From Gammaproteobacteria bacterium (GTDB lineage Bacteria > Pseudomonadota > Gammaproteobacteria > G965277405), in the NCBI GenBank assembly GCA_965277405.1, contig OZ255726.1, forward strand, positions 1,636,580-1,700,579: a stretch of DNA of 64,000 nt, given 5' to 3'. A program made the position numbers and the translations under genes. The notes beneath the pieces are model-generated. The model was given only the letters and a program-made list of their open reading frames with translations, made no database searches and was not told where the DNA came from. This document shows, piece by piece, positions 17,645 to 61,996 of this stretch (position 1 is the stretch's first letter; each line of letters opens with the position of its first letter).

Positions 17645-17691
17645 TATGGGGTCTCTGGGTAAATCTATACAGGTAGTAGTTTGTTGTAAAT

Positions 17692-18296: not shown

Positions 18297-18377
18297 AATA
18301 GTATGATGTTTTGAAAACTAGTATCATACACAAGATAAGATACTCTCGCCAATATTATGAGCTGTATTCAAAATCCG

Positions 18378-18677: not shown

Positions 18678-18872
18678 CTGCTACTAGTGTATTTCGCCTT
18701 TACATGCTACAAAAGCTGTGATATTTTTTAAATAATTGCAATACACTTTATATTTTTATATTATTCCACGACAACAGTTTCTTCATGTTGTTTTCAATAT
18801 TCAATACCTGACAATCCACCGGCGAGCGTTGCAACGCCGACAACTCTTATTAGTAAACTCATCCACCACGAT

Positions 18873-20132
18873 ATGAATTTGAATGAACTCAAGCGTATGT
18901 CCATGCCCGAGCTGCTTGCTTTTGCAAAAGATAAAAACATTGAAAATATGGGGCGTTCGCGCAAGCACGATCTGATATTTGCGCTGCTCAAACACCACGC
19001 CAAACAAGGCGCAGAAATAAGCGGTAGCGGATCACTTGAAATACTGCAAGATGGCTTTGGCTTTCTACGTTCAAGTGATAGTTCATACGTTGCAGGTTCT
19101 GATGACATATATATTTCACCAAGCCAAATACGCCGCTTTCAACTACGCAAAGGGGATACTATTAATGGACTAATCCGTCCGCCAAAAGAAAACGAACGTT
19201 ACTTTGCCCTTCTCAAAGTCATCGAAATCAACTTTGAGAAACCTGAGAATGCGCAATCTAAAATTTTGTTTGAAAACTTAACCCCACTCTTCCCAGACGA
19301 ACATATCAAGCTTGAAGTCGACGGCATGTCGGATCGACAGGCACTCACTGGCAGAATGATTGACTTACTCTCACCCATAGGAAAAGGTCAGCGCGGCTTA
19401 CTGGTTGCGCCACCGAAAGCTGGTAAAACATTTATTCTTAAAAATATCGCCAAAGCAATTGAAAAGAACCATCCAGAATGCCATCTGCTGGTATTACTGA
19501 TTGATGAGCGCCCCGAAGAAGTTACTGACATGCAACGCTCTGTTAAAGGTGAAGTGACTGCAAGCACCTTTGATGAACCAGCAACCCGCCATGTGCAAGT
19601 TGCAGAAATGGTGATTGAAAAAGCTAAACGCCTCGTGGAACACAAGCGTCATGTCATTATTTTACTCGATTCAATCACCCGCCTTGCCCGCGCATATAAC
19701 GCAGTCATTCCATCATCTGGCAAAGTTTTGACCGGTGGTGTCGATGCCAATGCATTAGAAAAACCAAAACGTTTTTTTGGAGCCGCAAGGAATATTGAAG
19801 AAGGCGGAAGTCTGAGTATTATTGCCACAGCATTGATTGATACTGGCTCAAAAATGGACGAAGTTATTTATGAGGAATTCAAAGGAACTGGCAACATGGA
19901 GCTCCACCTTGACCGCGAAATTGCAGAAAAAAGAATTTATCCTGCGATCAACATCCGCCGTTCAGGTACCCGCCGTGAAGAGCTGCTCATCCCTGAAGAT
20001 ATGCTGAAAAAAATGTGGATTCTCCGAAAAATATTACACCCTATGGAAAACGTTGATGCCTGTGAATTCATCGTAAATCGACTAAAGAACAGCAAGGATA
20101 ACAACGACTTTTTTGCAATGATGAAAAAGTAA
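18873..20132 (+). CDS. rho: transcription termination factor Rho
   Basis: Typical N-terminus MNLNELK..., [11 protein letters not shown], Walker A PPKAGKT. 419 aa. Confidence 0.96.
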
Positions 20133-20136
20133 ATGC

Positions 20137-21792
20137 ATGGACGCCGATCTTAAAAAAAACTTCATATATACTCAAATTCAACAAGACATTGCAGCCGAGA
20201 TTATCAGCACCCCAGTAACGCGGTTTCCTCCAGAGCCAAACGGCTATCTGCATATTGGTCACGCCAAATCAATTTGTTTGAACTATGATATCGCCCGTGA
20301 CTTTGGCGGAGTATGCAACTTACGCTTTGACGACACCAACCCAGAAAAAGAAAGTACGGAGTTTACTCAAAGCATTGCTCATGATATTCACTGGCTTGGC
20401 TATGGCAGCAATACACAGCCGAAACAGACGTCCGCATACTTTGAAAAATTATATCAATTTGCCCACGACCTTATCCAGCAAGGTCTAGCGTATGTCGATT
20501 TTTCTTCGCAACTAAGCATGCGCAACATGCGTGGAACATTGACTACAGCTGGGGAAAACAGCCCTTATCGCGACACCAGCATCGCTGCAAACACGGCACA
20601 TTTTACCGCGATGTACGCTGGCAAACACCCAGCTGGTAGCTGTGTGTTGCGTGCTAAAATTGATATGGCGTCACCGCGAATGTCCTTACGGGATCCGACT
20701 ATTTACCGCATCAAAGACATGCAACACCATGCTACTAACAAGCGCTGGCATGTTTACCCAATGTATGACTTTGCCCACAGTTTAAGTGATGCAATTGAAG
20801 GGGTTACCCATTCGCTGTGCACCTTAGAGTTTCAAGATAACCGAATACTGTATGCATGGTTTATTCAAAAGCTTACCCCCACATCGCCAACGCGACAATA
20901 TGAGTTTGCTAAGCTGCGTCTTGAGCATACGCAACTCAGCAAACGCAAACTACAACAACTGATTGCAGAAGGCTTTGTTGATGGCTGGGACGACCCACGC
21001 ATGCCGACCATTGCTGGGATGCGTAAGCGTGGCTACCCAGCGCTTGCCATCCGCAACTTTTGCAACCAAATTGGTGTTGCCAGGATGGATAATTTGGTCA
21101 GCTATACACAACTTGAAAGCGCAGTGCGCGATGCACTCAATACTATAGCTACGCGTGCGTTAGTAGTGTTTGACCCTATTCGGATTGTCATCACCAATTT
21201 TTGCGCGACAGAAACATTGCGCATTGCCCGCCACCCCAATAATCCCGATGCAGGCTGTCGCGATGTGCCATTTACCCAAGAATTGTATATTGAGCGTGAT
21301 GATTTTCGTGAAAGAGCTAACAAACATTACAAACGGCTCGTGCTAGGAAAAAATGTCCGCCTGCGTGGCGGCTATGTCATCATTGCCGATGGATTGAAAT
21401 ATAATAACGCTGGCAACGTTGATACAGTGTATTGCCACTATGACCCGACAACGCTTGGCAATAACCCAGCAGATGGTAGCAAAGTACGCGGTGTTATTCA
21501 TTGGGTAAGCAAAACGCAGCATATTCCAATTGAAGTTCATCTGTATCAACGCCTATTCATAGATGCTATTCCTGATGACAGCCAACCACTTGCCCAACTC
21601 ATCAATCCCGACTCACACAAGATCACGACCGCGTATGCTGAACCGAGTATCGCAGCCGTGCCAAGCGACCATCATGTGCAATTTGAACGCGTTGGCTATT
21701 TCTATAAAGACCCGCGCGATCCAGATGCACATATATGGAACCGCAGCGTAGAACTCAAAGATAATTGGTCAACATCCCAATTTACAAGCTAA
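20137..21792 (+). CDS. glnS: glutamine--tRNA ligase
   Basis: HIGHAKS and LSKRKL motifs. 551 aa. The TAA stop (21790-21792) is part of the RE295 left end. Confidence 0.95.
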   Translation: MDADLKKNFIYTQIQQDIAAEIISTPVTRFPPEPNGYLHIGHAKSICLNYDIARDFGGVCNLRFDDTNPEKESTEFTQSIAHDIHWLGYGSNTQPKQTSAYFEKLYQFAHDLIQQGLAYVDFSSQLSMRNMRGTLTTAGENSPYRDTSIAANTAHFTAMYAGKHPAGSCVLRAKIDMASPRMSLRDPTIYRIKDMQHHATNKRWHVYPMYDFAHSLSDAIEGVTHSLCTLEFQDNRILYAWFIQKLTPTSPTRQYEFAKLRLEHTQLSKRKLQQLIAEGFVDGWDDPRMPTIAGMRKRGYPALAIRNFCNQIGVARMDNLVSYTQLESAVRDALNTIATRALVVFDPIRIVITNFCATETLRIARHPNNPDAGCRDVPFTQELYIERDDFRERANKHYKRLVLGKNVRLRGGYVIIADGLKYNNAGNVDTVYCHYDPTTLGNNPADGSKVRGVIHWVSKTQHIPIEVHLYQRLFIDAIPDDSQPLAQLINPDSHKITTAYAEPSIAAVPSDHHVQFERVGYFYKDPRDPDAHIWNRSVELKDNWSTSQFTS

Positions 21793-21970
21793 GGAACCTC
21801 TGATTAAGTCCATGATGGGCGAGACGGAGAGAAAACGCTGATGATAACTAGACGCAGCACTTGATAATACTGGTGGTCTTGTGGGTGTTGCCAAGTGCTG
21901 CAACGACGTTAGCGCCGCTTTTTTCCCGTCGTTGTGTTGAATATACTTTGGGTTTGCGGCAATTGCAGGT
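21789..21970 (+). mobile_element. RE295 element, left half only (copy 6)
   Basis: CTAAGGAACCTCTGATTAAGTCCATGATGGGCGAGACGGAG ... TTTGGGTTTGCGGCAATTGCAGG, after which similarity is lost. Confidence 0.85.
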
Positions 21971-22444
21971 CTATGCTGGTTTTGCTACAACGTTGTACAA
22001 TGGTTGGCTATCGTGAAAACACTGTTTGTATCAAGGTTTGAGCAGTATTCATGTGAAAAATTATTTACGGATGGTTGGCGAAAAAAACACCGAATTTCTG
22101 CTGGTTATGCTTGTTTTAACGTCACCGTTGTGCTATATACTGCAACAGTATAATCTCCAAAGTGCTGACTATTCGTGACTATTCACATAGCTACGAGTAG
22201 TCAGTTATATTGATTATTCATGGCGAAATCCATACGGGTGTTTGGAAGCGGCTGGTCAATCAGCCGCTTTTTCATCAACCACTATTTTATTAGAGATTTT
22301 GCCATTCCCTTTAATTGCTATAAAATATGCCAGCTACTGCGCGATGCGTAGTATTCATATAATAGTTGGTATTGTTACTGCACTATGGTTCAAGCTGACA
22401 ACCAGTTTATGTATTTGGCATCACTCACCGCCTAATACCACAAA

Positions 22445-22530
22445 ATATATTGAATACAGGGATGGAAAACGCTGCGCTGCGTCGTTGCAGCTCTTGGCAG
22501 TACCCACAAGAGCAACCAGTGTTAGTTGCG
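22445..22530 (-). mobile_element. degenerate internal RE295 fragment
   Basis: ATATATTGAATACAGGGATGGAAAACGCTGCGCTGCGTCGTTGCAGC resembles the complement of the central left arm. Confidence 0.45.
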
Positions 22531-22685
22531 TCCTTGGCTTAAATAAGCTTTGCATTATGCTTTTTTTATTGTATAGTAGAATATTCATATACATCTCGAC
22601 TGAATCAGTTTGCAAATTTTATTTGCAAATTGACATACAAACAAAATAGGCGGCTTTAGCTGCCTGTTTTGTTGTTTGGTAAGTA

Positions 22686-23060
22686 TTAGCCTAACAATTG
22701 CATGAATTTAGCAGATGGGCTGGTGCTTGGTATGTATCCATCTTTCACTGCGTCATCTTTCACTGCGTCTTCTTGACCAACTTACCTCAAAACCATTTGC
22801 ATAAATTGCTTTTCATGCGTTGGCAATTCACAGTTTGGCTGTTTGTTGACATAGATACATAAAAATCTAGCAATAGGATATTCACCAGACAATATATTTT
22901 CAGTTGAGGCCTTGTATGCTGTGCCACCTGTTTTTATTTGCAATTGGCAGCACGCTCGCGCTGCGGTAGCCAATTCCTGGATAGCCAATCCCAGCAACAG
23001 CAACTGCTGGCACTACTGCTGCTGAACTAGGATGCTCATTCACGATTTTATTGTAGTCAC
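22686..23060 (-). pseudogene. PstS-family phosphate-binding protein remnant (C-terminal part only; frameshift, in-frame stop, 15-bp tandem duplication)
   Basis: ..AGIGYPGIGY.. is in one frame and ILSGEYPIARFLCIYVNK..FMQMVLR* in another. After the stop comes VGQEDAVKDDAVKDGYIPS... The duplication TCTTTCACTGCGTC[A/T] x2 is at 22741-22770. The 5' part is cut off by RE295 at 23061. Confidence 0.6.
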
Positions 23061-23369
23061 CTTTGGAAGCTCTGATTAAGTCGCTGATGGAGCGAGTTTG
23101 ATGGCAATTGCTGATGATTGCAAGGCGCAAACCGCTAAGCGCATGACCTAGCTGCCAAGGGATGTAACACAGCAAGTACCGCTGCAGCAAACTGCTGTAT
23201 GTTGAACAGTATATTCAACAGAAGGACGGGAAAAAAGCGGTACTAACGTCGTTGCAGCACTTGGCAAAACACCCACAAGACCACCAGTATTATCTGCGCA
23301 CTGCGCTTAAGTTTCAGCAGCGTTTTTTATCCGTCGCGCCCATCATGGAATTAATCAGCGCTTCCTTGA
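23061..23369 (-). mobile_element. RE295 element, near-full copy 7
   Basis: GGAAGCTCTGATTAAGTCGCTGATGGAGCGAGTTTG ... CCCATCATGGAATTAATCAGCGCTTCC. Confidence 0.9.
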
Positions 23370-29082: not shown

Positions 29083-29124
29083 GACGGAGTAAATCAGCAG
29101 CGAGTTAACCAGAGGTTCCCTTAA
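29053..29124 (+). mobile_element. 72-bp internally deleted RE295 derivative (left arm fused to right arm)
   Basis: TTTCTCTGATGATGTCCATGATGGTTGAGACGGAG joined directly to TAAATCAGCAGCGAGTTAACCAGAGGTTCCCTTAA. Confidence 0.7.
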
Positions 29125-29383
29125 GGAACCTCTGGTTAACTCCATGATGGGCGAGACGGAGAAAAAACGCTGATGATAACTAGACGCAGTGCGCAGATAA
29201 CACTGGTGGTCTTGTGGGTGTTGCCAAGTGCTGCAACGACGTTAGCGCAGCGTTTTTCCCCGGCCTTCTATTGAATATATGATGGTTTGCCTACAATTGT
29301 TGCGCCTGCGGAATGCGCCTTGCAATCATCAGCAATTGCAGGCAAACTCGCTCCATCAGCGTCTTAATCAGAGCTTCCCTAAG
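29121..29383 (+). mobile_element. RE295 element copy 8 (both ends present, ~30-bp internal deletion)
   Basis: TTAAGGAACCTCTGGTTAACTCCATGATGGGCGAGACGGAG ... CATCAGCGTCTTAATCAGAGCTTCCCTAAG. It abuts the mini-element at a shared TTAA. Confidence 0.9.
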
Positions 29384-29399: not shown

Positions 29400-30032
29400 A
29401 TGGATACAATGAATACATCACACAACGATATAATAGCTCAACTTGTCCCAATGGTAGTAGAACAAACCAACCGCGGCGAGCGTGCCTACGACATATATTC
29501 GCGCTTGCTGAAAGAGCGTGTTATTTTTCTTGTTGGCGGCGTTGAAGAGCATATGGCAAACTTAATTGTTGCCCAATTGCTTTTTCTTGAGTCGGAAAAT
29601 CCAGATAAAGCAATTTCACTGTATATCAACTCTCCTGGTGGCGTTGTGACTGCGGGAATGGCAATATATGACACAATGCAATATATAAAATCTGAGGTTG
29701 CTACAGTATGTATTGGTCAAGCAGCAAGCATGGGTGCTGTGCTGTTAGCAGCGGGTGCAGCTGGTAAGCGGTATTGCTTACCGCATAGTCGAGTAATGAT
29801 TCATCAACCATTGGGCGGTTTCCAAGGTCAGGCAACAGATGTAGAAATTCATGCCCGCGAAATTCTCAAAGTCAAAGCAATGATCAATCAACTGCTTGCC
29901 AAGCATTGTAATAAAAAACCTAGCCAACTGGCTAAAGATACTGAGCGCGATAATTTTTTGAGTGCAGCAGAAGCGCAGCAGTATGGTTTGATCGACGAAG
30001 TACTATCGCAACGACCCTTAGGGAAGCTCTGA
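29400..30032 (+). CDS. clpP: ATP-dependent Clp protease proteolytic subunit
   Basis: Start MDTMNTSH.. Catalytic contexts [11 protein letters not shown] and MIHQPLGG. The last 4 codons (LGKL) and the TGA stop lie in RE295 copy 9. Confidence 0.93.
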
Positions 30033-30323
30033 TTAACTCCATGATGGGCGAGACGGAGAAAAAACGCTGATGAAACTTAAACGCAGTGCGCAGCTAATAC
30101 TGGTGGTATTATCAAGTGCTGCAACGCCGTTAGCGCAGCGTTTTTTCCCGGCCTTCTATTGAATATATGATGGTTTGCCTACAATTGCCTACAATTGCTT
30201 ACGCTTGCTGTGTTGCATCCCTTGGCGTATATGCTACGGCATGCGCCTGCGGAATGCGCCTTGCAATCATCAGCAATTGCAGGCAAACTCGCTCCATCAG
30301 CGACTTAATCAGAGGTTCCTTAG
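30018..30323 (+). mobile_element. RE295 element, near-full copy 9
   Basis: TTAGGGAAGCTCTGATTAACTCCATGATGGGCGAGACGGAG ... CATCAGCGACTTAATCAGAGGTTCCTTAG. It contains a small internal duplication, TGCCTACAATTGCCTACAATTGC. Confidence 0.9.
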
Positions 30324-30504: not shown

Positions 30505-30625
30505 CAACGATTGCTTACGCTTGCTGTGTTGCATCCCTTGGCGTATATGCTATGGCATGCGCCTTGCAATCATCTGCAATTGCAGGCAAACTCTCTGCAG
30601 CAGCGGCTTAAGCAGAGCTTCCTTG
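30505..30625 (+). mobile_element. RE295 element, right half only (copy 10)
   Basis: ATTGCTTACGCTTGCTGTGTTGCATCCCTTGGCGTATATGCTATGGCATGCGCCTTGCAATCATCTGCAATTGCAGGCAAACTC...GCTTAAGCAGAGCTTCCTTGG. Confidence 0.85.
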
Positions 30626-40453: not shown

Positions 40454-42918
<2,465 letters not shown>

Positions 42919-42919
42919 T

Positions 42920-44018
42920 ATGGAAATGGAACGCAATCAAATCAACAATGAAATAAAAAATCGTTTGGCGCAAGTACACGCGCTGCGGAGGTATCTTTGA
43001 CTACGATGCCAAACTGCAACGCTTGACGGAACTCAAAGATTTATTGAGCAATCAATCCTTGTGGCAGGACCGACAACGCGCACAACAACTCAGCAAAGAG
43101 GAAGCACACATTGATCGAGTCATTACCCCGATCAATCAAGCCTTGCAACAGCTCGACGCGCTCGACGAGTTGTTGGAAATGGCGTGCATGGAAAATGACG
43201 ATGCAGTTATTGCAGATGTTGTTGCGGATTTGCAAGGCGTGGGCAAAACTATTGATGATTTAGAGTTTCAGCGGATGTTCAATAATCCACATGACCCAGC
43301 CAATGCGTATATCGACATCCAAGCAGGATCTGGGGGCACCGAAGCGCAGGATTGGGCAAATATGTTGTTGCGGATGTATTTGCGCTGGGCGGAGTCGCAT
43401 CAGTTTAAAACAGAAATGCTCGATTATTCACACGGCGATGTAGCTGGCATTAAAAACGCAACAATTTTGGTGAGCGGGTCGTACGCGTTTGGTTGGGCAC
43501 GCACAGAAACAGGGGTCCATCGCTTGGTGCGCAAATCACCATTTGATTCAAACAGCAAACGCCATACTTCATTTGCCTCGGTATTTGTCTCACCAGAAAT
43601 TAACGATGATATTGAAATCGATGTCAACCCAGCAGATTTGCGGGTCGATACTTATCGCTCCAGCGGTGCAGGTGGGCAGCATGTCAACACCACAGATTCT
43701 GCGGTGCGGATTACCCATCTGCCAACGGCAACGGTTGTCCAATGCCAAAACCAGCGCTCACAGCATCAAAACCGTGATAAAGCGATGCAGCAGTTGCGCG
43801 CCAAGTTGTATGAAATTGAAATGCTAAAACAACGCGCGGAGCGCGATGAGGTAGAAGCCAATAAATCTGACATTGGTTGGGGCAGCCAAATTCGTTCATA
43901 TGTCCTTGATGATGCGCGGATTAAAGACTTGCGCACGGGGCATGAAACAGGCAATACTCAAGCGGTATTGAATGGTGATATTGACGCTTTTCTTATTGAA
44001 AGTCTGCGGACTTTATAA
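42920..44018 (+). CDS. prfB: peptide chain release factor 2, requires programmed +1 frameshift at 42998
   Basis: Frame 0 reads [26 protein letters not shown] then TGA. The +1 frame continues [13 protein letters not shown]... SPF (RKSPFDS) and GGQ (GAGGQHVN) motifs are present. Confidence 0.93.
42987..43001 (+). promoter_or_regulatory. prfB autoregulatory +1 frameshift site
   Basis: GGAGG TAT CTT TGA C: an SD-like element 3 nt upstream of the CTT-TGA-C slippery/stop context, as in E. coli prfB. Confidence 0.9.
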
Positions 44019-44665: not shown

Positions 44666-44712
44666 CCGATGAAGTGAGTTTGTTAGCAGATGCTGTTGTT
44701 GATGCCCGCACC
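44645..44712 (-). mobile_element. degenerate RE295 right-end fragment (inverted)
   Basis: AGAAAACTCTGACTAAGTAGCCGATGAAGTGAGTTTGTTAGCAGATGCTG compared with GGAAGCTCTGATTAAGTCGCTGATGGAGCGAGTTTGCCTGCAATTGCTG. Confidence 0.55.
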
Positions 44713-44867
44713 ATCACGAACACTTCTTTATGGTAATTGTGCGCGTGGAGTTTTGCAGCGATAGCGTTTGAAATTTGCAGTATTCATCGATATAATTCCT
44801 AGCAAACAGGTGTTGTTCTTGCTGGTAACATGTATTATTCGCAATATTTTACATTTAAATTGGAGTT

Positions 44868-45458
44868 ATGGGCATTATGTATACTAATAGAATTGCTTCA
44901 CAGGTATTGATTGTCGGTAGTGTTTTGCTGGCGGGCTGTTCATCTTCCCCTACCGTTCCCACGCAGGAAAAATGCGTGTTTCCAGACGCTGCGGGTGGTG
45001 ATGCTCCACTGTGGGTGTGTCATGAGCGTCTTGATGGTGGCCCAAAATTTCAAGCAATGGGAAGTTCACGACTAGGAGGAAACCGTTCACTAGCTGAGTC
45101 AAAAGCAACGGCTGTTGCACAGGTTAAATTGGCGCGGCGGATGAACAGCTCCATAAAAAACATGCTTGAAGGCTATGCCGCTGAAGTGGTATCAACCGAT
45201 GGCGATGTTATCAACACAGATAGCTTTGAAGAAACAACTCGGATTACAGTGAAGCAAAATATTATCGGCAGCCACATTATTCGAAAAGTGGTTAGTTCTA
45301 GCGGAGACGAACTGTATGTACTGATGGTAATGAATCCTGCTGATGTTAAGGAGGTGGTAGGCGAAGTTATCGATGTACTGGAACAGGAAAATAATCTGTT
45401 AAAGGGTAAGATGAACCTAGGCAATGCAATGAAACGCCTCGATGAGAAGGTGCAATAG
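44868..45458 (+). CDS. LPP20-like lipoprotein
   Basis: Canonical lipobox LLAGC (Cys24). LPP20-like pattern ..PLWVC..AMGSS...AESKATAVAQVKLARRM..LYVLMV. Confidence 0.65.
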   Translation: MGIMYTNRIASQVLIVGSVLLAGCSSSPTVPTQEKCVFPDAAGGDAPLWVCHERLDGGPKFQAMGSSRLGGNRSLAESKATAVAQVKLARRMNSSIKNMLEGYAAEVVSTDGDVINTDSFEETTRITVKQNIIGSHIIRKVVSSSGDELYVLMVMNPADVKEVVGEVIDVLEQENNLLKGKMNLGNAMKRLDEKVQ

Positions 45459-45530
45459 GTCGTTAGTGCCTGCATAGTCGTTAGCGTCCGCATAGTTAGC
45501 GCCCACATATATTATATTAGCGTCCACATA
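45459..45530. repeat. four imperfect ~15-18-bp direct repeats GTCGTTAGCGTCCGCATA
   Basis: Units at 45459-45476, 45477-45494, 45495-45509 and 45517-45530. They fill most of the gap between two lipoprotein genes. Confidence 0.75.
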
Positions 45531-45541
45531 TAAATGCCGCC

Positions 45542-45919
45542 ATGCGCCATTGTTTGTTGTTTGCTTTGGTATTGCTTCTTCCATCTTGCACACTATTTCA
45601 ACCGCATCCTCCTGAATGGATGAACAATCCACCAGCAAACAGCGGAGTTGGCATTGCTGGACCGAACATAGGCGGCATTCCCGCACAAATCAGCTTAGCA
45701 ACCCACCGAGCCAGTATTGATTATGCAAAAAGGAAAGGGTATCTGGTTGAATCATCAACTCTGGTTCGCGCTGGTGCTGATGGGAAGATTGAATGGGAAG
45801 AGCTAGAGGAGAATAGCAACGGGACTATGGAGGCAACTAAAGTGCAGGTAGAAGTGCGAGAACGTTGGTACGATGGGCATACCAACTACTATGTTCTGGT
45901 TACGGCAGTGGATGAGTGA
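45542..45919 (+). CDS. small exported protein, probably a lipoprotein, LPP20-like
   Basis: 125 aa. Signal peptide with LLPSC (non-canonical Pro at -2). Pattern ..PEWMNNPP..GVGIAG...ATHRASIDYAKRKG..YYVLV. Confidence 0.5.
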   Translation: MRHCLLFALVLLLPSCTLFQPHPPEWMNNPPANSGVGIAGPNIGGIPAQISLATHRASIDYAKRKGYLVESSTLVRAGADGKIEWEELEENSNGTMEATKVQVEVRERWYDGHTNYYVLVTAVDE

Positions 45920-46050
45920 TGGGGTTTTAGTTGGTATTCTAACCATTCATCCAATATTGATTGTTTGTAGGTTTGATTCAGCATTCTGGCAACGTGTGTT
46001 GCAACGAAAAATGCAAGTGATGAGTGATATTCACCAGTTTAAACGCCCAG

Positions 46051-46086
46051 CTAATAAGGAATCGCTGATTAAGCAGATGATTGGCA
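46051..46086. mobile_element. degenerate RE295 end-like fragment inside the cluster
   Basis: CTAATAAGGAATCGCTGATTAAGCAGATGATTGG compared with CTAAGGAAGCTCTGATTAAGTCGCTGATGGAG. Confidence 0.4.
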
Positions 46087-46246
46087 TATGTCGTGTAAAC
46101 CACTGCCAACGTTGTCAAACTATTGAAATATACTGAATGTTTTCGTACACTTGTCTGTGATTTTTGCTGTCTTTGCTCTAGCATAGTCTCTATAGCGTAA
46201 CAATTGTGCAGATTGATCAATACAACGCCACAGGAGGGGGACGTTC

Positions 46247-49123
46247 ATGCGAAACACCACACTCAGTACAACAGTAACTAGATTTGCCGTGTTCGTCAGT
46301 TGTATCCTGTTAGCCGTAGGCTGCGCTACACAGCAGGCTACACAGCACAAGCCACAGCAGGCTAGTCAACAGCACCAGCTACAGCAGGCAAAAAAACAGC
46401 ACCAGCTACAGCAAGCTCAACAGCACCAGCCCAACGCAGAGTTGCGGAACGCCACCAGAGTGGCGTTCAAGGAGCGAATCCGTGTTATTAAGCTGTTGCG
46501 CACCATTAATGGGCATAGTAACCATGTATACTCAGTCGCCTTCAGTCCAGATGGTAAGACCCTCGCCAGCGGATCTCGCGATGGTATTCTCAAACTCTGG
46601 AATCCGCGCAGCGGTAAGTTGTTGCGCTCCATGAATGGGCATAATAGTGACATGGTAACGTCAGTCGCCTTTAGTCCAGATGGTCAGACCTTCGCCAGCG
46701 GATCTGGGGATAATACTATCAAACTCTGGAATCCGCGCAGCGGCAAGCTGTTGCGCACCATTAATGGGCATAGTGACCATGTAGACTCAGTCGCCTTCAG
46801 TCCAGATGGTAAGACCCTCGCCAGCGGATCTCGCGATGGTATTCTCAAACTCTGGAATCCGCGCAGCGGTAAGTTGTTGCGCTCCATTAATGGGCATAAT
46901 AGTTACATGGTAACGTCAGTCGCCTTTAGTCCAGATGGTAAGACCCTCGCCAGCGGATCTCGCGATGGTATTCTCAAACTCTGGAATACGCGCAGCGGCA
47001 AGTTATTGCGCACCCTGAATGGGCATAGTGACCATCTATACTCAGTCGCCTTCAGTCCAGATGGTAAGACCCTCGCCAGCGGATCTCGCGATGGTATTCT
47101 CAAACTCTGGAATCCGCGCAGCGGTAAGTTGTTGCGCACCATGAATGGGCATAATAGTCACATGGTAACGTCAATCGCCTTTAGTCCAGATGGTAAGACC
47201 CTCGCCAGCGGATCTGGGGATAATACTATCAAACTCTGGAATCCGCGCAGCGGTAAGTTGTTGGGCACCACTAAAGTGCAGAGTAACGATGTATTTTCAG
47301 TCGCCTTCAGTCCAGCTGGAACCCTCGCCAGCGGATCTACTGATAATACTATCAAACTCTGGCAATTACCACCGAGGCTAGATGCCAATGACTTGAATAA
47401 TGACTGGAATAAGTTTGTCGTCAGTTGGAATCGTGGCGACGCAGGGCTAATAGAATTGTACCAGCTACAACGCAAATACCCAGAGGATGCCGTCATAGGC
47501 GATGCATACGTCAAAGCGAGTGTCGCTAGCCCCTACGAAAGTGGCCGAGTTGCTGTTTATTTGCACCGGCGGCAGCTTGACAGCACTAGCTGGCGGACAA
47601 CTACCGCCTTTATCCAACAACTGGCTTCTGACTGGCTCAACCTTAAGGAAATAATCAAACCAGCGAAAATCATAATGCCTACGTTACCGCCAGCTGTAGA
47701 GCTGACACAGGAAAATTGGGAAGGGGATAGTGAATTCGAAACTCGAGTTGCTCAGCTGAACAAGGCGCGTCAAGCGCGGATAAACCAACTTCAAGCAGAC
47801 TACAGACACAAGGTCGAAGTGCGCAACAGCAAAGTTAGCAAGCTTGAACGCCTACAACAGCAACGCCATAATCAACTAGCAAGCTATGTACAAGGCATAC
47901 TTGATTATAGCCTTGAAACGCAGCCGCCAGCACTAGACAAAGTAATAATCAACCAACAAACACTTGATCTTTATGCTGATCTGGTGTTCAAAGGAACCCT
48001 TGTTGGTCGCTATAAACTGGCGCAGGCGCCACTGAAGCTGCGCAAACAGGCTATGACTAACAGCAAAAGTGTGAAAGTTCTACCAAATATTGAGTTAAGC
48101 GACACCAATGATTTTCGTGTAACTTCAATCACTATCTTGCATGATGATCAAAGATGGCTAGCGCAGGCAAGCGAGCAGCAGCTACAACACACGAATACCC
48201 CTTTGGTTGCTACCATCGGCAACGCCGGCGAAACGCGTGAACTGAGTAGTATCTCCCTACTGCAAAAGCAAAACCCCAACCTAGTCGATGTCAACTCAGT
48301 GGGGACGGTTCAGTACAAAGACGGCACCACAGCACTCACCCGCTATCAAGACGATCTCACTCCGCTGGTGCAACAATTAGCCCAAGCACCAATAGACCAA
48401 AGCAAATGGCTGTTCGTCATCGGTGCAGAACGCTATCAGGAGACAGATAACATCCTTTTTGCCAGAAGAAGTGCCGAGAACTTTGCCCTCGCCGCCAAAA
48501 AATCACTTGGCATCGACGCTGGTCACACCATCACCCTCTACGACGAGCAGGCAACCAGTGGACAGATCAAAACCAAGCTCAAAAAGCTGCTGCGTGATGG
48601 CATTAGTTCAGGTGACAGCATTATCATTTACTACAATGGTCACGGCTTGCCGGTCAGAGAACAGGACGATACCCCCTATATGCTGCCGACCGATATGATT
48701 CCCGACTTTGTCAGCGATGAGCCTTTTTTTAAACTTGAAAATATGTATGCTTTACTCGCTAAATCGAAAGCAGGCAACGCAATAGTGATAATGGACAGTT
48801 GCTTTACTGGCGGCGCGGACGGCAGGTCAGTCATCAAAGGTGTGGCAGCAGCGAGGCTATCACCAAAAAAACTTTTGATAGACAAGAGCAAACTCATCGT
48901 TATGACAGCAGGGACAGACAAGCAATACTCCACCGCCTTCAAAGACAAAGGCTACCGACTTTTTAGCTACTACCTGATTAAAAGGCTGGTAGCAAACAAA
49001 CCGCAAACGGTTGAAGATTGGTTTGAATCGGTACAAAGTCAGGTCAAAACAACTTCGCGCCAAATAGGAGGCTCGCTCAGCTATCAGGATCCGCAGTTGC
49101 TGGGGAGCAATCAGCAGCTATAG
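46247..49123 (+). CDS. lipoprotein with Q-rich tether, seven WD40 repeats, long linker and C-terminal caspase-like (peptidase C14) domain
   Basis: Strong SD (GGAGGGGG). Lipobox LLAVGC (Cys26). Seven units of NGH..SVAFSPDGKTLASGS.D..IKLWN. The C14 pattern is WLFVIGAERY...IIIYYNGHG...AIVIMDSCFTGG, with the catalytic His and Cys present. Confidence 0.85.
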   Translation: MRNTTLSTTVTRFAVFVSCILLAVGCATQQATQHKPQQASQQHQLQQAKKQHQLQQAQQHQPNAELRNATRVAFKERIRVIKLLRTINGHSNHVYSVAFSPDGKTLASGSRDGILKLWNPRSGKLLRSMNGHNSDMVTSVAFSPDGQTFASGSGDNTIKLWNPRSGKLLRTINGHSDHVDSVAFSPDGKTLASGSRDGILKLWNPRSGKLLRSINGHNSYMVTSVAFSPDGKTLASGSRDGILKLWNTRSGKLLRTLNGHSDHLYSVAFSPDGKTLASGSRDGILKLWNPRSGKLLRTMNGHNSHMVTSIAFSPDGKTLASGSGDNTIKLWNPRSGKLLGTTKVQSNDVFSVAFSPAGTLASGSTDNTIKLWQLPPRLDANDLNNDWNKFVVSWNRGDAGLIELYQLQRKYPEDAVIGDAYVKASVASPYESGRVAVYLHRRQLDSTSWRTTTAFIQQLASDWLNLKEIIKPAKIIMPTLPPAVELTQENWEGDSEFETRVAQLNKARQARINQLQADYRHKVEVRNSKVSKLERLQQQRHNQLASYVQGILDYSLETQPPALDKVIINQQTLDLYADLVFKGTLVGRYKLAQAPLKLRKQAMTNSKSVKVLPNIELSDTNDFRVTSITILHDDQRWLAQASEQQLQHTNTPLVATIGNAGETRELSSISLLQKQNPNLVDVNSVGTVQYKDGTTALTRYQDDLTPLVQQLAQAPIDQSKWLFVIGAERYQETDNILFARRSAENFALAAKKSLGIDAGHTITLYDEQATSGQIKTKLKKLLRDGISSGDSIIIYYNGHGLPVREQDDTPYMLPTDMIPDFVSDEPFFKLENMYALLAKSKAGNAIVIMDSCFTGGADGRSVIKGVAAARLSPKKLLIDKSKLIVMTAGTDKQYSTAFKDKGYRLFSYYLIKRLVANKPQTVEDWFESVQSQVKTTSRQIGGSLSYQDPQLLGSNQQL
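46508..47375 (+). repeat. tandem 126/129-bp coding repeats (7 WD40 blades), near-identical at the DNA level
   Basis: Units start at 46508, 46634, 46763, 46889, 47018, 47144 and 47273. Alternating 126- and 129-bp units give a super-repeat of about 255 bp. Confidence 0.9.
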
Positions 49124-49140
49124 CACAAGCCAGACAAAGC

Positions 49141-50193
49141 ATGCAATCTCCTTGGCAGTTTGTCTGTATGGCAATACTCCTAAGTTGTTGCGCCACAAAC
49201 ACACCAACCCTAGAATATCCGCAGTGGTACAAAAGATTACCGCAGCAGCAAGGGATAGTGATTGGCTATGGCTATGGTTTGACAAAACAAGAAGCTCGGT
49301 ACAAGTCTTTTGATCATCTTCGTAACCAGCTGGGCGTCAGCGTACATTCCACTCAGGTTTTTTCTGAGTTTGAACGAATTACTAACATTGGCATTGATGA
49401 GTTCAGCGATACAAGGGCAGCAGAAGTAATTATTAATGCGGATATACACGGAGCCGTCCTGCGTAAGGCTGAGCAACGAGGCAGTTATTATTTCATCGCT
49501 TACAGCACTGATATCAGGTCGGTTCGGTCGCGTATTCTCGAAACCCCCAGTCTTTGTCAAGGAGCAAAGGCTGTCGGAATACACAGGCAGCAAAGCCTAA
49601 CAGGTTTCAAGCCATTCGCACCAATCACCCGAGATTTACAAGCAGATGGTTGCCCAGACAACTGGACTCTACAACGGCTGAATAATTCATGGTCTATTGA
49701 ATTGGCGGGACACAGTTTCCAGCTACCGAATGAGCAACTATGGCGTCTTACCCTTGCTATAGACAAGACAGATGAACTTACACTGCTTGACGATAAACAT
49801 CATGAACAGGAGAGTTTTCGTGCTGGTGAGCGTTATTTCGTTTCCTATAACAAACCAGTTAATAGCAACATGTACCTTTTTCTCGTTAACGAACTTGGTC
49901 AGGTTAATCTACTTGATCAATCCGAGGCCAAACAGCTACGCCGTGAGCGCTGGTTGTACCCCAATCCCGATAAATACGCTGGTGGTTTGATCGCAGCACC
50001 GAACTCAAGTGGATCAATACATAATGACTTAATAGTGGCAGCCGCTTGTCCTGAGACTATCCACTATCATTTTTCCTCCCTGACAAGTGCAAAACCTGAC
50101 CTTGCCGATGAAAGACTGTATGTTCTGGACCGATTGATCAAGGAAGTTGAGCATTGTTTGGTACATATGAGAAGCCTCAGGATAGTATTATAA
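49141..50193 (+). CDS. lipoprotein with LPP20-like N-terminal part and DUF4384-like C-terminal part
   Basis: Lipobox LLSCC. YGYGLTKQEARYKSFDHLRNQLGV is LPP20-like. FRAGERYFVSYNKPVNSNMYLFLVNELGQVNLL...IVAAAC fits the recalled DUF4384 pattern. Confidence 0.55.
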   Translation: MQSPWQFVCMAILLSCCATNTPTLEYPQWYKRLPQQQGIVIGYGYGLTKQEARYKSFDHLRNQLGVSVHSTQVFSEFERITNIGIDEFSDTRAAEVIINADIHGAVLRKAEQRGSYYFIAYSTDIRSVRSRILETPSLCQGAKAVGIHRQQSLTGFKPFAPITRDLQADGCPDNWTLQRLNNSWSIELAGHSFQLPNEQLWRLTLAIDKTDELTLLDDKHHEQESFRAGERYFVSYNKPVNSNMYLFLVNELGQVNLLDQSEAKQLRRERWLYPNPDKYAGGLIAAPNSSGSIHNDLIVAAACPETIHYHFSSLTSAKPDLADERLYVLDRLIKEVEHCLVHMRSLRIVL

Positions 50194-50290
50194 TGTTCAG
50201 GTGAAGCACTGAGTGTTGCGGTCGGATGTTATATGCAGATATGCTATGCTGGTCAACCCTGACCATTAGCCACATAACCATGAGAAAAAT

Positions 50291-51754
50291 ATGCGCATTT
50301 ACCTAGCACCTGTATTTGTGACAATCCTTTGGATTACTTCTTCTTCAATAACAACAACTTACGCTGCTAGCGATATTGAGCAGCGTAAGCTGCAGATGCA
50401 GCAGAGCATAAATAAGCAAAAAAAAATCTTTGCAGCTTACAAGCGCAATAGTAAAAACGAGTTTGAAGCCTATCGTGCCCAGCAACAGGAAACTTTAAAA
50501 AAAGCAATTAAAGAAAACTGGCGCCAATTTCAAATTTACAAAGCAGACTTCAGCTTGCTTGGCAACAAGCCGCAAAACCAACCAGCCTACGGCAACCAGG
50601 TTAAACATCAACTAGCAGCCAAATCACCAAATCTCAAAACATCAATTGTAAAACCTAGGGATGGTCATCTTTCACAGCAAAAAACAGCAAACACGCAGCC
50701 ACTTAATCTGTATGGAATGACGTTATCTATGCCTGTGGTCACGCAGCCAGTCATGTCAGCAGGAGCAGACAAACAGGCAATTACTGACTATCTACAAGTA
50801 AACCCAGATTACGAAAAAAAGTTAGTTGTGTTTGCCCGTGATACTGCAGAGCGACTCCACCTTGACGATTGGGGTACATACTTGCTGATGCGTGAAATAG
50901 CACGGCAGCTCTACCCAGATAGCTGGCAAACCAGACGCCTTGCCCAATGGAAATGGATGAATCAGCTTGGCTACGATCTGCGCATAGCCGAAACAAGCAA
51001 CGAATTACGTTTACTACTACCAGTCACCCAGACAATATATGGTCACTCATACATATTTATAGAAGGCAATAAATACTATCTTGATACCCCAGCTGGTAGC
51101 GACTTGCACACCTATCCACAACAATTTGATAAACTTGCAGCCATAGAGAATATCAACCCAACACAAGTGCGGTGGTCTGATGACAAGCAGAATATTCATG
51201 TTCGCCAGCTTGATTATTCCAACGATGGCGAACACTACCAAATTACGCTTAAGTTCGATATACGTACACTGCGGATGATGCAGGATTATCCGCAAATGAT
51301 TTTTTCTCGATATTTTAAAACACCTCTTTCGCCAAAACTTGAACAATCACTCAAAGATCAGCTCATGCCTGTGCTTGCAGGCAAGAGCAAATATCAGCAG
51401 GCAAGTCTGCTGCTTAAGTTGGTACAGAAATCTCTCGCCTACCAGACTGATCAACAACAGTTTGGCAAGGAAAACTACCTATTTGCCGAAGAATCTATAG
51501 GGTTTCCATATGCCGACTGTGAAGACAGAGCTATTCTGTATGCTTGGCTGGTGCATGAGCTGCTCGACCTTCCCTATCTGGTACTGCTATACCCTAACCA
51601 CCTGACTACGGCCATAGCTCTGAACGGAACAGGTGACACAATTCATTATGGCAATACCATCTATCTGATAGCTGACCCAACATACATAGGGGCACCAATC
51701 GGTAAAGCCATGCATCCGCAGATAGAGCCAAAGATTATTTATGCTTCACAATAG
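50291..51754 (+). CDS. secreted protein with C-terminal transglutaminase-like cysteine-protease fold
   Basis: Signal peptide ..TTTYAAS. Candidate Cys/His/Asp triad in YADCEDRAILYAWLV, YPNHLTTAIAL and LIADPTY. Confidence 0.55.
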   Translation: MRIYLAPVFVTILWITSSSITTTYAASDIEQRKLQMQQSINKQKKIFAAYKRNSKNEFEAYRAQQQETLKKAIKENWRQFQIYKADFSLLGNKPQNQPAYGNQVKHQLAAKSPNLKTSIVKPRDGHLSQQKTANTQPLNLYGMTLSMPVVTQPVMSAGADKQAITDYLQVNPDYEKKLVVFARDTAERLHLDDWGTYLLMREIARQLYPDSWQTRRLAQWKWMNQLGYDLRIAETSNELRLLLPVTQTIYGHSYIFIEGNKYYLDTPAGSDLHTYPQQFDKLAAIENINPTQVRWSDDKQNIHVRQLDYSNDGEHYQITLKFDIRTLRMMQDYPQMIFSRYFKTPLSPKLEQSLKDQLMPVLAGKSKYQQASLLLKLVQKSLAYQTDQQQFGKENYLFAEESIGFPYADCEDRAILYAWLVHELLDLPYLVLLYPNHLTTAIALNGTGDTIHYGNTIYLIADPTYIGAPIGKAMHPQIEPKIIYASQ

Positions 51755-51784
51755 AGCGTTGTTTTGGTGTTATACATGCGCTGT

Positions 51785-52039
51785 TGCGGTACTTGCTGTG
51801 TTGCAACCTTTGGTGTATATGCTCCGGCATGCGCCTGCGGAATGCGCCTTGCAATCATCAGCAATTGCAGCAATTGCAGCAAACCGTTGTATATTCAACA
51901 GAATGACGGGAAAAAACGCTGCGATAACGTCGTTGCAGCACTTGATAATACCACCAGTATTATCAAGTGTTGCGCTTCAGTTATCATCAGCGTGTTTGCT
52001 TAGTCTCGCCCATTATTGAGTTAATCAGAGCTTCCTTAA
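51785..52039. mobile_element. rearranged RE295 copy 11 (right-arm interior in + orientation fused to left half in - orientation; only one terminal repeat)
   Basis: GCGGTACTTGCTGTGTTGCAACC..CCTTGCAATCATCAGCAATTGCAG, then CAATTGCAGCAAACCGTTGTATATTCAACAGAATGACGGGAAAAAACGCTGCG...CCCATTATTGAGTTAATCAGAGCTTCCTTAA. Confidence 0.8.
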
Positions 52040-52048
52040 TAAGTTATA

Positions 52049-56628: not shown

Positions 56629-56938
56629 GTTGATCAAACGGTTATGCTATGTTGCTATAATTGTATTACTGTTTTTTTTGGCGATGTTATTTACTCGCAA
56701 CAATGCAACAGAGCTTGTCATAGATTTTTGGGTGTGGCAAACTCCGCCTGTCTACGCTGGGGTGTGGTTCATCATTATTTTTGTTGCAGGCATGACCCTG
56801 ACGGCTATTCCTTGGGCTATCCAGCGCAGTTTTTATCGTCACAGCGTTACCAGCCTCAAACGCAAGCTGGCAGCAGCAAACACGCTTAAGGAACCTCTGA
56901 TTAATTCCATGATGGGCGAGACGGAGAAAAAACGCTGA
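56621..56938 (+). CDS. lapA: LapA-like (YciS/DUF1049) inner-membrane protein with RE295-derived C-terminal tail
   Basis: Two TM segments and synteny after ihfB. The last 17 codons plus stop ([17 protein letters not shown]) are read from the RE295 left arm. Confidence 0.65.
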   Translation: MIRLIKRLCYVAIIVLLFFLAMLFTRNNATELVIDFWVWQTPPVYAGVWFIIIFVAGMTLTAIPWAIQRSFYRHSVTSLKRKLAAANTLKEPLINSMMGETEKKR

Positions 56939-57174
56939 TGATAACTAGACGCAGTACGCAGATAATACTGGTGGTCTTGTGGGTATTGCCAAGTGCTGCA
57001 ACGACGTTATCGCAGCGTTTTTTCCCGTCCTTCTGTTGAATATACTTTGGGTTTGCTGCAGCGGTACTTGCTGTGTTGCATCCCTTGGCGTATATGCTAC
57101 GGCATGCGCCTTGCAATCATCAGCAATTGCAGGCAAACTCGCTCCATCAGCGAGTTAATCAGAGCTTTCCTAAG
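56886..57174 (+). mobile_element. RE295 element, near-full copy 12
   Basis: TTAAGGAACCTCTGATTAATTCCATGATGGGCGAGACGGAG ... CATCAGCGAGTTAATCAGAGCTTTCCTAAG. Confidence 0.9.
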
Positions 57175-57927: not shown

Positions 57928-57936
57928 CCGTATATG

Positions 57937-58060
57937 CAATTTGCTGACGCTTGCTGGCCATCCCTTGGCGTATATGCTACGGCATGCGCTTAGCGCCTTG
58001 CAATCACCAGCAATTGCTAATTAACTCGCTCCATCAGCGAGTGAATCAGAGCTTCCTTAG
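57937..58060 (+). mobile_element. RE295 element, right half only (copy 13)
   Basis: ..CATCCCTTGGCGTATATGCTACGGCATGCGCTTAGCGCCTTGCAATCACCAGCAATTGC...CATCAGCGAGTGAATCAGAGCTTCCTTAG. Confidence 0.85.
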
Positions 58061-58480
58061 CTACAACGAAGATTTACTCTTTGCTGATTTAGAGCAATTT
58101 AAGCAAAAACTGGCTAACTGGTTAGGGAAACTCTGATTAAGTCCATGATGGGCGAGACGGAGAAAAAACGCTGATGATAACTTAAGCGCAGTGCGCAGAT
58201 AATACTGGTGGTATTATCAAGTGCTGCAACGACGTTAGCGCAGCGTTTTTTTCCGTCCTTCTGTTGAATATATGATGGTTTGCTGCAATTGCTGCGCTTG
58301 CTGTGTTGCATCCCTTGGCGTATATGCTACGGCATGCGCTTAGCGGTTTGCGCCTTGCAATCATCAGCAATTGCAGGCAAACTCGCTCCATCAGCGACTT
58401 AATCAGAGCTTCCTTAGTGTGGTACAACTATGAGCGACCTCATCATTCACATAACAAAAACCACCTATTCAAGCTATGCT
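58061..58480 (+). pseudogene. rve-type (IS3/IS481-like) transposase C-terminal remnant, split by RE295 copy 14
   Basis: The left piece is ..YNEDLLFADLEQFKQKLANW (58061-58121) and the right piece is VWYNYERPHHS.. (58418-). Removing the element restores ANWLVWYNYERPH in frame. Confidence 0.55.
58122..58417 (+). mobile_element. RE295 element, near-full copy 14
   Basis: TTAGGGAAACTCTGATTAAGTCCATGATGGGCGAGACGGAG ... CATCAGCGACTTAATCAGAGCTTCCTTAG, with TTAG on both flanks. Confidence 0.9.
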
Positions 58481-61657: not shown

Positions 61658-61958
61658 CTAAGGAAGCTCTGATTAACTCGCTGATGGAGCGAGTTTGCCT
61701 GCAATTGTTGATGATTGCAAGGCGCAAACCTCTAAGCGCATGCCGTAGCATATACGCCAAAGGATGCAACACAGCAAGTACTGCTGCAGCAAACCCAAAG
61801 TATATTCAGCACAACGACTGGAAAAAAGCGGTACTAACGTCGTTGCAGCACTTGGCAGCACCCACAAGACCACCAATATTATCTGCGCACTGCGTCTAGT
61901 TATCATCAGCGTTTTTTCTCCGTCTCGCCCGTCATGGACTTAATCAGAGATTCCCTAA
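61658..61958 (-). mobile_element. RE295 element, near-full copy 15
   Basis: CTAAGGAAGCTCTGATTAACTCGCTGATGGAGCGAGTTTGCC ... CGCCCGTCATGGACTTAATCAGAGATTCCCTAA, with CTAA on both flanks. Confidence 0.9.
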
Positions 61959-61996
61959 CGCTAGCACGTGTTGCTATTGCGCGTATTACTATCTGG

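Follow-up and report, generated by a model that had tools for sequence, protein, structure and literature searches.

We describe a gene, g3, in a 64,000-nucleotide stretch of a Gammaproteobacteria assembly (GCA_965277405.1, contig OZ255726.1, positions 1,636,580 to 1,700,579; hereafter the window, with coordinates counted from its first letter). It encodes a 958-residue predicted lipoprotein in which a WD40 propeller of near-identical blades is joined to a caspase-fold domain, and the residues at which the blades vary most correspond to those that are hypervariable in the fungal HET-E protein. An evolutionary reading that combines copying and conversion of blades, exchange between loci, and selection at sites on the top face of the propeller is well supported. 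We consider it probable that this blade exchange and top-face selection act on the variable recognition module of an envelope sensor-protease.

An AGGAGG Shine-Dalgarno sequence (a pattern match) lies 8 nt upstream of g3, and the product is organized, from N- to C-terminus, as lipobox signal peptide, Q-rich linker, seven-bladed propeller, coiled coil, beta-sandwich and C14 caspase. The corresponding features are as follows.

46247–49123, + strand: g3, a single open reading frame encoding the WD40-caspase predicted lipoprotein and carrying the variable tract
46247–46324, + strand: signal peptide and predicted lipobox LLAVG-C26, with Ala at +2, read from the sequence
46330–46430, + strand: 27-bp tandem repeat (period 27, 4 copies, 80% matches) encoding the Gln-rich linker from lipid anchor to propeller
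46493–47380, + strand: seven WD40 blades, residues 83–378, in the order A-B-A-B(chimera)-A-B-C, from repeat finding, Pfam, AlphaFold2 and Foldseek
46455–47545, + strand: stretch that is hypervariable between loci, comprising the propeller and ~165 nt downstream and mosaic among loci, from a sliding identity profile and protein comparison
47726–47920, + strand: long single helix, residues 494–558, coiled-coil-like and kept across the family, from AlphaFold2 on alignment A1 and conserved columns
47930–48169, + strand: beta-sandwich domain, residues 562–641, from the AlphaFold2 model on alignment A1
48386–49120, + strand: Peptidase C14 (caspase-fold) domain, with His799 at 48641–48643 and Cys852 at 48800–48802, from Pfam PF00656 and Foldseek

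Fold and repeat anatomy of the propeller

Propellers with near-identical blades form a known class, the WD40-family Recently Amplified Propellers (WRAP; PMC6805158, PMC9218822), and on the predicted structure the g3 tract is a closed seven-bladed WD40 propeller of this WRAP, or high-internal-conservation, type. Pfam WD40 (PF00400) matches seven stretches of g3 (E 1.3e-93), and AlphaFold2 prediction of residues 68–390, made with no alignment, gave 28 strands that form seven four-stranded blades (pLDDT 89.2, pTM 0.87). Foldseek aligned the model to 7-bladed WD40 structures with TM-scores of 0.85–0.98, the closest being the designer 7-bladed propeller WRAP-T (7big; TMt 0.98, rmsd 1.0 Å, 59% identity). 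The natural parent of WRAP-T, the 'highly repetitive propeller' Npun_R6612 of Nostoc punctiforme (2YMU), is 55% identical to the g3 propeller and is also the best phmmer match in the PDB (2ymu_A, 1.9e-240); WDR5 comes next among solved structures, at ~35% identity. A search with the WD40 domain alone recovered generic cyanobacterial WD40 proteins at 55–62% identity and no further alleles.

Tandem Repeats Finder reports the array at 46489–47338 with two periods, one of 129 bp (6.7 copies, 85% matches) and one of 255 bp (3.3 copies, 91% matches, score 1446), the latter bearing out a proposal, made in an earlier note on this DNA, that a two-blade unit of about 255 bp has been amplified. In blade register the units are as follows.

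46493–46618, + strand: unit 1, 126 bp
46619–46747, + strand: unit 2, 129 bp
46748–46873, + strand: unit 3, 126 bp
46874–47002, + strand: unit 4, 129 bp
47003–47128, + strand: unit 5, 126 bp
47129–47257, + strand: unit 6, 129 bp
47258–47380, + strand: unit 7, 123 bp

The earlier note had likewise counted seven units, although its bounds (46508–47375) are slightly narrow and its unit lengths of 126 or 129 bp do not extend to the last unit. A one-codon indel separates the A from the B blade types. At the DNA level the A units (1, 3 and 5) are 95.2–98.4% identical to one another, the B units (2, 4 and 6) 90.7–95.3%, and A and B units 84.1–90.5%, with the closing unit 7 only 69–73% identical to the others. 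Units 1–6 span 43 codon columns, 25 of which are invariant at all three positions, 15 are variable in amino acid or contain an indel, and the other 3 differ synonymously only.

All six of the patch strings that had been picked out after the GH dipeptide (SNHVYS, NSDMVTS, SDHVDS, NSYMVTS, SDHLYS and NSHMVTS) are present, and differences among units 1–6 are concentrated in this patch and in the b-c turn. A few single substitutions do lie outside both patches, in columns 4, 5, 16, 23, 25 and 39. The switch between RDGIL and GDNTI is real but does not follow the A-B alternation, as unit 4 is chimeric, its first half being of B type and its second half carrying the A-type RDGIL. Only two nucleotides distinguish units 1 and 3; each change is non-synonymous and falls within the patch. 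At the first codon position of column 11 all four bases are found (NAC, giving N, D, Y or H).

Variable sites and probable blade exchange among loci

Three related loci, L001, L002 and L003 (encoding proteins P0003, P0002 and P0004, respectively), all come from one European Nucleotide Archive metagenome assembly. The gene cluster that includes g3 (44686–51808) is 97–100% identical to these per 100-bp bin outside of 46455–47545, and within that stretch identity falls to 62–85%. Homology between the loci ends at about 51808, and the flanks outside the cluster are different at all four places. Each of the four loci has exactly seven blades, including a distinct closing blade, such that the expansion and contraction to which the array was earlier thought prone are not seen; the constant blade number is presumably held by ring closure.

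Blades at the same position in two loci are no closer to each other than blades at different positions (79.9 vs 80.9% identity for the window and L001), and in a matrix of all blades from the four loci the nearest neighbour of each is mostly within its own locus. Positional orthology is kept only by closing blade 7, for which the window and L002 copies are 88% identical. Several blades of one locus share motifs that are private to it, namely RDGIL and an extra Asn in the window, PAGN in L001, and NTRSGK and an AGGGGT deletion in L002. This grouping of blades by locus, with locus-private motifs, indicates that the blades evolve in concert. Patches are also found at shifted positions, with SNHVYS in blade 1 of the window and in blade 4 of L001. 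The same overall pattern has been described for close homologues of WRAP proteins by Pereira and Lupas and for the NWD family by Paoletti et al. (PMC1805685).

The ~65 residues that follow the propeller (47346–47545) also diverge between loci, in a mosaic manner. The window and L002 share PPRLDANDLNNDWNKFV, the window and L003 share KYPED..AYVKAS, and L001 and L002 share KYPTNTSIAAAYAR, indicating recombination among copies of the cluster. The Gln-rich tether varies in both length and sequence among the four loci and is a second, minor length-variable tract of g3.

Alignment of the 24 internal blades of the four loci shows column entropy to be highest at columns 14 (3.27 bits), 30 (3.20 bits), 12 (3.16 bits) and 11 (2.92 bits), followed by 33 (2.23 bits) and 40 (1.79 bits), with all remaining columns at or below 1.25 bits. 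The blades conform to the pattern G-H-S-x11-x12-V-x14-S ... G-S-x30-D-x33-T, in which V13 and D31 are invariant, and the a-b loop (SPDGKT), most of the c-d loop and the outer strand d are exposed elements that are nearly invariant. In HET-E the four most strongly selected codons form two pairs, each flanking a conserved residue; the d-to-a loop and the b-c turn hold one pair each, and both belong to the top interaction face (PMC1805685). Positions with a high ratio of non-synonymous to synonymous substitution (dN/dS) are 10, 11, 12, 14, 30, 32 and 39 in the current HET-E numbering (PMC12222747). With the G-H dipeptide set at positions 8–9 of that numbering, a register that we infer, the six top-entropy columns (11, 12, 14, 30, 33 and 40) correspond to HET-E positions 11, 12, 14, 30, 32 and 39, an overlap expected by chance with a probability of ~1e-6. 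In the window alone, six of the seven a-priori HET-E sites fall within the 15 variable columns (hypergeometric P = 0.0045), and the concentration of variation is thus not due to chance. DSSP assignment of the AlphaFold2 model locates x11 and x12 in the d-to-a loop, x14 at the second residue of strand a, and x30 and x33 in the b-c turn, such that five of the six top-entropy columns lie on the top face, where the earlier note had expected the variable residues to be; x40 is the exception.

Selection was assessed from Nei-Gojobori differences between blades within each locus. Non-synonymous divergence (pN) at the four a-priori HET-E codons, relative to synonymous divergence (pS) of the remaining codons, is 6.5 in the window, 3.9 in L001, 2.2 in L002 and 1.7 in L003, and pN/pS of the remaining codons is 0.3–0.7 across the four loci. 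Because conversion homogenizes whole blades, divergence at neutral sites should not exceed that at synonymous sites within these blades, and the pN excess at the HET-E codons above this level argues for diversifying selection. The match of sites to HET-E, the pN excess and the clustering of blades by locus support the earlier suggestion of concerted evolution with diversifying selection. The propeller has the features of the high-internal-conservation or WRAP type, in that its blades are near-identical in DNA with few synonymous differences (84–98% for blades 1–6, with a pS of 0.08 for the window), group by protein rather than by position in all four loci, and have hypervariable top-face sites with a non-synonymous excess by simple counting.

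We propose, with good support, that duplication of a two-blade unit and gene conversion repeatedly copy blades over one another, and that blade segments or patches are exchanged among several copies of the five-gene cluster, such that the scaffold stays nearly identical even at synonymous sites. Selection in this model keeps or favours differences at about five residues per blade, in the x-x-V-x motif after GH and the x-D-x motif of the b-c turn. These residues are on the top, ligand-binding face, and clusters that are otherwise near-identical in this way present different binding surfaces. The debate that sets 'recent amplification' against 'concerted evolution plus selection' also gains a clean bacterial example in this array.

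Several observations weigh against this interpretation and the functional one built on it below. Column x40, alone among the six variable sites, is in the c-d loop on the bottom face, and residues were assigned to faces from DSSP strand positions together with canonical WD40 topology. The pN and pS values come from plain pairwise counting on repeats that exchange sequence, which takes no account of a tree, and at the hypervariable sites divergence is close to saturation. Residues of the top face are the least constrained in any WD40 blade, and relaxed constraint alone would yield part of the pattern. The four loci may be paralogues of one genome or alleles or strain variants. As to function, PADLOC matched g3 only to a weak generic caspase model (PDLC02987, 1.2e-6), and the window's own copy of the putative partner lipoprotein, g4 (see below), falls below every Pfam threshold.

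Caspase module, partner lipoprotein and alternative readings

The C-terminal domain matches Peptidase C14 (PF00656) with 49.6 bits against a cutoff of 21.4 when residues 701–958 are scanned alone; a Pfam scan of the whole C-terminal 584 residues gave no match. Foldseek places the domain with the MALT1 paracaspase (TMt 0.72), the yeast metacaspase Yca1 and caspases. Among 77 homologues the His799 motif (YYNGHG) is present in 75 and the Cys852 motif (DSCFTG) in 76, with constant spacing, and in alignment A1 the His, the Cys and their neighbouring residues are invariant. The region between propeller and caspase is occupied in the AlphaFold2 model (built on 13 homologues, pLDDT 81.6) by a helix of 65 residues and the beta-sandwich.

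No nucleoside triphosphatase (NTPase) family was found in Pfam, NCBIfam or PADLOC scans of either the whole of g3 or residues 375–958, and with no NTPase domain from any library g3 is not a sensor of the NLR/STAND type. Those sensors are cytoplasmic, and the lipobox signal peptide predicts instead that g3 is exported and lipid-anchored; most full-length homologues also begin with a signal or lipoprotein sequence. The likeness to sensors of conflict systems that was originally proposed extends to the pattern of variation and not to the NLR/STAND class.

The C-terminal module of helix, beta-sandwich and C14 domain defines a widespread family, with 77 database homologues and 251 genomic relatives, in Campylobacterota, Vibrionaceae and Shewanella (Vibrio/Photobacterium/Shewanella), Spirochaetia, Burkholderiaceae and others. 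The N-terminal module in these relatives is WD40, ankyrin, Sel1, DUF1566 or FGE-sulfatase. Mean blade identity is 83% in one relative (P0060) and 82% in another (P0064), with variation at the same positions as in the window, and a third (P0015) has ordinary blades with 39% mean identity; homogenized propellers are thus recurrent in the family but not universal. P0015 is one of two WD40-caspase paralogues, with P0008, in a single spirochaete genome (Spirochaetaceae OZ245056.1; L007/L009). One of the two is fairly homogeneous (66% mean blade identity) and the other divergent (39%), a natural contrast for homogenization. Within the GTDB species set the caspase gene has no close relative (best match 44% identical), and an exact-protein look-up of g3 found no record. 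A megablast search of plasmids with the five-gene cluster gave no match, and a plasmid search at the protein level gave one, in Sulfurimonas, informative only through its annotation.

The cluster consists of g3 and four other genes, all on the same strand, with the following features.

44768–44796, + strand: promoter-like site TTGAAA-17-TATAAT, an 11/12 consensus match, the number of such sites in the region not being above shuffle expectation
44868–45458, + strand: g1, the first cluster gene, a 196-residue predicted lipoprotein with lipobox LLAGC, an open reading frame 92–99% identical in L001 and L003
45542–45919, + strand: g2, a 125-residue predicted lipoprotein with lipobox LLPSC, from the open reading frame and its N-terminus
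49141–50193, + strand: g4, a 350-residue lipoprotein and divergent member of the LPP20-DUF4384 partner family, by BLAST linkage
50291–51754, + strand: g5, the last cluster gene, a predicted 487-residue secreted protein of unknown family, from the open reading frame and its N-terminus
51783–51807, + strand: terminator-like hairpin just 3' of g5, at the edge of inter-locus homology, from a consensus scan

These five same-strand genes, with the pattern matches to a promoter, Shine-Dalgarno sequence and hairpin, are compatible with one operon. Searches of Pfam, NCBIfam, PADLOC, PHROGs and PDB sequences with g1, g2, g4 and g5 gave nothing usable: g1 has no match in Pfam, NCBIfam or PADLOC, g5 none in Pfam, PDB or PHROGs, and none of the four genes neighbouring g3 has a PADLOC match. 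Against an LPP20/LPP20-DUF4384 profile hhalign gave weak matches for g1 (probability 25%) and g2 (probability 29%). The g5 product is 99.6–100% identical in L001–L003, with homologues near the caspase gene in only two distant loci. In 51 of 79 loci, the window included, the caspase gene is followed directly, in the same orientation, by a homologue of g4. LPP20 was matched by 12 of 14 members of the g4 family scanned and DUF4384 by 9 of 14. The window's g4 is placed in this family by BLAST linkage, with a BLASTP match (2e-9) to an annotated LPP20-family lipoprotein, and by comparison with Sulfurimonas aquatica, in which an annotated 'LPP20 family lipoprotein' adjoins a 'caspase family protein'.

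On the functional side, where support is weaker, we infer that g3 acts as a sensor-protease of the envelope and that its propeller serves for recognition. With its lipid anchor and Q-rich tether, the protein would reside either in the periplasm or at the outer membrane, beside the constant LPP20-DUF4384 lipoprotein. A polymorphic protein ligand, on binding to the top face, would then control the His799/Cys852 caspase, possibly by oligomerization via the long helix, and the caspase would cleave an envelope target, perhaps the LPP20-DUF4384 partner. Candidate ligands are phage or toxin components that enter the envelope and polymorphic proteins on the surface of neighbouring cells. Relatives swap the WD40 module but retain the LPP20 partner and the rest of the protein (helix, beta-sandwich and caspase), which fits a constant protease with a swappable recognition module. 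In its fullest form this idea makes the cluster an NTPase-independent, extracytoplasmic receptor-protease whose top face varies through the shuffling of blades between cluster copies, detecting polymorphic foreign or non-kin proteins that arrive in the periplasm or at the outer membrane (phage components, toxins, epibionts or neighbours) and firing its caspase on the LPP20-DUF4384 partner or another envelope target; we offer it tentatively, as possible though doubtful. If true, it moves HET-E-style hypervariable recognition outside the cytoplasm and apart from STAND ATPases. Should the propeller be a ligand sensor, diversifying recognition would be coupled to caspase proteolysis also in the bacterial envelope, and the four natural variants on the same backbone would be a ready specificity panel for a ligand search.

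The same variability could arise if the propeller were a surface-exposed target, such as a phage receptor or an antigen of a host or predator, that varies to escape recognition. Antigenic variation classically acts on exported and surface proteins, g3 is a predicted lipoprotein with a long flexible tether, and between loci that are otherwise identical only one domain varies. However, it is only the canonical ligand-contact positions that vary, and the other exposed loops are nearly invariant; the fusion to a conserved and apparently active protease and the swapping with other protein-binding modules also fit a recognition module better. We therefore regard evasion as unlikely.

Quite unlikely, in our view, is recent amplification only, in which a young two-blade array carries neutral differences and there is neither diversifying selection nor ongoing conversion. 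The Lupas group takes such propellers as recently amplified (PMC6805158, PMC9218822), and both the 255-bp period and the low pS of the window fit a young array. However, pN at the four a-priori sites exceeds the pS of these blades 6.5-fold, the only two changes between units 1 and 3 are non-synonymous and in the patch, and all four bases occur at one position of column 11. Moreover, the same sites vary in the three other loci and in distant homologues, and the unit 4 chimera and the patches at shifted blade positions require exchange after amplification.

An assembly artefact, in which the array is a collapsed or mis-joined form of some other repeat structure, is very improbable. Repeats of 126–129 bp at 84–98% identity are hard for short reads, and Illumina assemblies misreconstruct such WD40 arrays (PMC12222747), but the frame is intact through 958 codons, and there are exactly seven blades, as a closed propeller needs, with a high-confidence prediction. 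Three independently assembled related loci likewise have seven blades and a distinct closing blade, and the 2.17 Mb length of the window's contig suggests long-read data. Targeted hypermutation by a diversity-generating retroelement or similar mutator is scarcely credible even though such elements diversify related conflict-type sensors in multicellular bacteria (PMC10907252, PMC7159879), as the 64-kb window has no reverse-transcriptase YxDD motif in any long open stretch and no template repeat or extra repeat copy outside the array, and substitutions are not adenine-restricted (G/C/T/A at one site, CGC to GGG, GGT to AAT).

Known systems and surroundings of the cluster

Near-identical blades with a hypervariable top face are characteristic of the allorecognition NLRs of fungi and the WRAP/STAND proteins of cyanobacteria, and the latter have been proposed as ancestors of eukaryotic innate-immunity modules. 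WRAP propellers are said to have been treated by Chaudhuri in 2008 and Dunin-Horkawicz in 2014. To our knowledge, the repeats of all such proteins described so far signal to an NTPase switch in the cytoplasm, and in g3 the same evolutionary pattern, at the same codons, is found on a predicted lipid-anchored, exported caspase with no NTPase.

Like WRAP proteins, g3 has seven near-identical units with few synonymous differences, and its close homologues have been homogenized independently. The WRAP propeller, however, forms the C-terminus of a STAND ATPase that is cytoplasmic and shares an operon with a TIR/caspase STAND protein, whereas that of g3 is N-terminal on a predicted exported lipoprotein with no NTPase and is joined via the helix and beta-sandwich to a caspase; the amplification unit of g3 is also two blades, unlike that of WRAP. 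With HET-E, HET-D and HNWD of Podospora anserina, g3 shares concerted repeats, the same hypervariable codons (12, 14, 30 and 32, plus 11 and 39) on the top face (PMC1805685, PMC2873952, PMC12222747), and the swapping of repeat material among family members or loci. Those fungal proteins have a HET-NACHT-WD40 architecture, reside in the cytoplasm and vary in repeat number (two propellers), whereas g3 is bacterial and predicted to be exported, and has a fixed number of seven blades, a caspase effector and no NACHT domain.

Prokaryotic metacaspases and orthocaspases fused to WD40, Sel1, TPR or FGE-sulfatase have been surveyed (Asplund-Samuelsson 2012, PMC3501461), with WD40 the commonest partner domain (10.9%) and signal-like helices at the N-terminus of some members. 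Although g3 resembles these in combining a C14 caspase with protein-interaction repeats, the survey has no description of the sub-family with binding module, long helix, beta-sandwich and C-terminal caspase and, downstream, an LPP20-DUF4384 lipoprotein, or of near-identical blades with hypervariable sites. The two-gene EACC1-caspase system is similar in pairing a constant membrane or envelope component with a caspase that has a highly variable module, and caspase_w_EACC1 is the best NCBIfam match of the g3 caspase (1e-14), although its 54.5 bits are far below the family cutoff of 140. The genes upstream encode small lipoproteins with no EACC1 match, and none encodes an EACC1 transmembrane protein; the constant component is instead the LPP20-DUF4384 lipoprotein downstream, and the variable module is N-terminal and sensor-like, not a C-terminal effector as in EACC1 systems. 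In the Apaf-1 apoptosome, too, WD40 propellers respond to a protein ligand and in this way govern the activity of a caspase, and Apaf-1 is among the PDB sequence matches of g3. Unlike Apaf-1, a cytosolic STAND ATPase with a separate caspase, g3 has its putative sensor and protease in one predicted exported polypeptide with no NTPase.

The repeat phenomenon (WRAP propellers and the high-internal-conservation repeats of fungal NLRs) and WD40-caspase fusions among prokaryotic metacaspases are already known. We did not find described a predicted exported, lipid-anchored and NTPase-less propeller-helix-beta-sandwich-caspase with a constant LPP20-DUF4384 partner and near-identical clusters that differ only in the propeller, and g3 represents a new variant context in this respect; the literature we searched on caspases with lipoprotein, LPP20 or DUF4384 has no description of this system.

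The clusters at the related loci are in varied neighbourhoods. That of L003 (L082, contig ctg9634_9x_l) lies among IS1595- and IS4-type transposases and 4 kb from a type II CRISPR-Cas9/Cas1/Cas2 locus (L082 16902–21310), and that of L001 adjoins the end of a Mu-like prophage (16364–22853) with a repressor, transposase, TniB-like ATPase and Gam.

A dispersed intergenic repeat of ~300 bp is present in the window as 13 full and 3 partial copies that are 76–94% identical and in both orientations, and the same family is found on the L001–L003 contigs. An Rfam scan found one tRNA only and assigned the repeat to no family. Its copies in the window are at the following coordinates.

1104–1394, 2456–2751, 13951–14245, 16902–17193, 18378–18675, 21790–21966, 23065–23365 and 29121–29381, both orientations in the set: dispersed repeat
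30018–30323, 30510–30624, 51784–51870, 51859–52046, 56886–57167, 57935–58060, 58101–58420 and 61658–61959, both orientations in the set: dispersed repeat

The repeat abuts the 3' edge of the g3 cluster and in L001 flanks both edges (8183–8418 and 15555–15708), and copies at these edges may have mediated duplication or relocation of the cluster.

The window has a GC content of 45%. Its purA gene (41467–42918) has nearest relatives that are 52–53% identical, in various Gammaproteobacteria, among ~5.8 billion proteins, and is the single purA sequence of this lineage on record; together with the distance of the caspase gene from its GTDB relatives, this indicates a lineage with no close sequenced relatives. 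The prfB gene, encoding RF2, has the classical +1 programmed frameshift site CTT TGA C at 42995–43001, where the upstream frame ends in ...RRYL* and the main open reading frame (43023–44018) runs on in the +1 frame.

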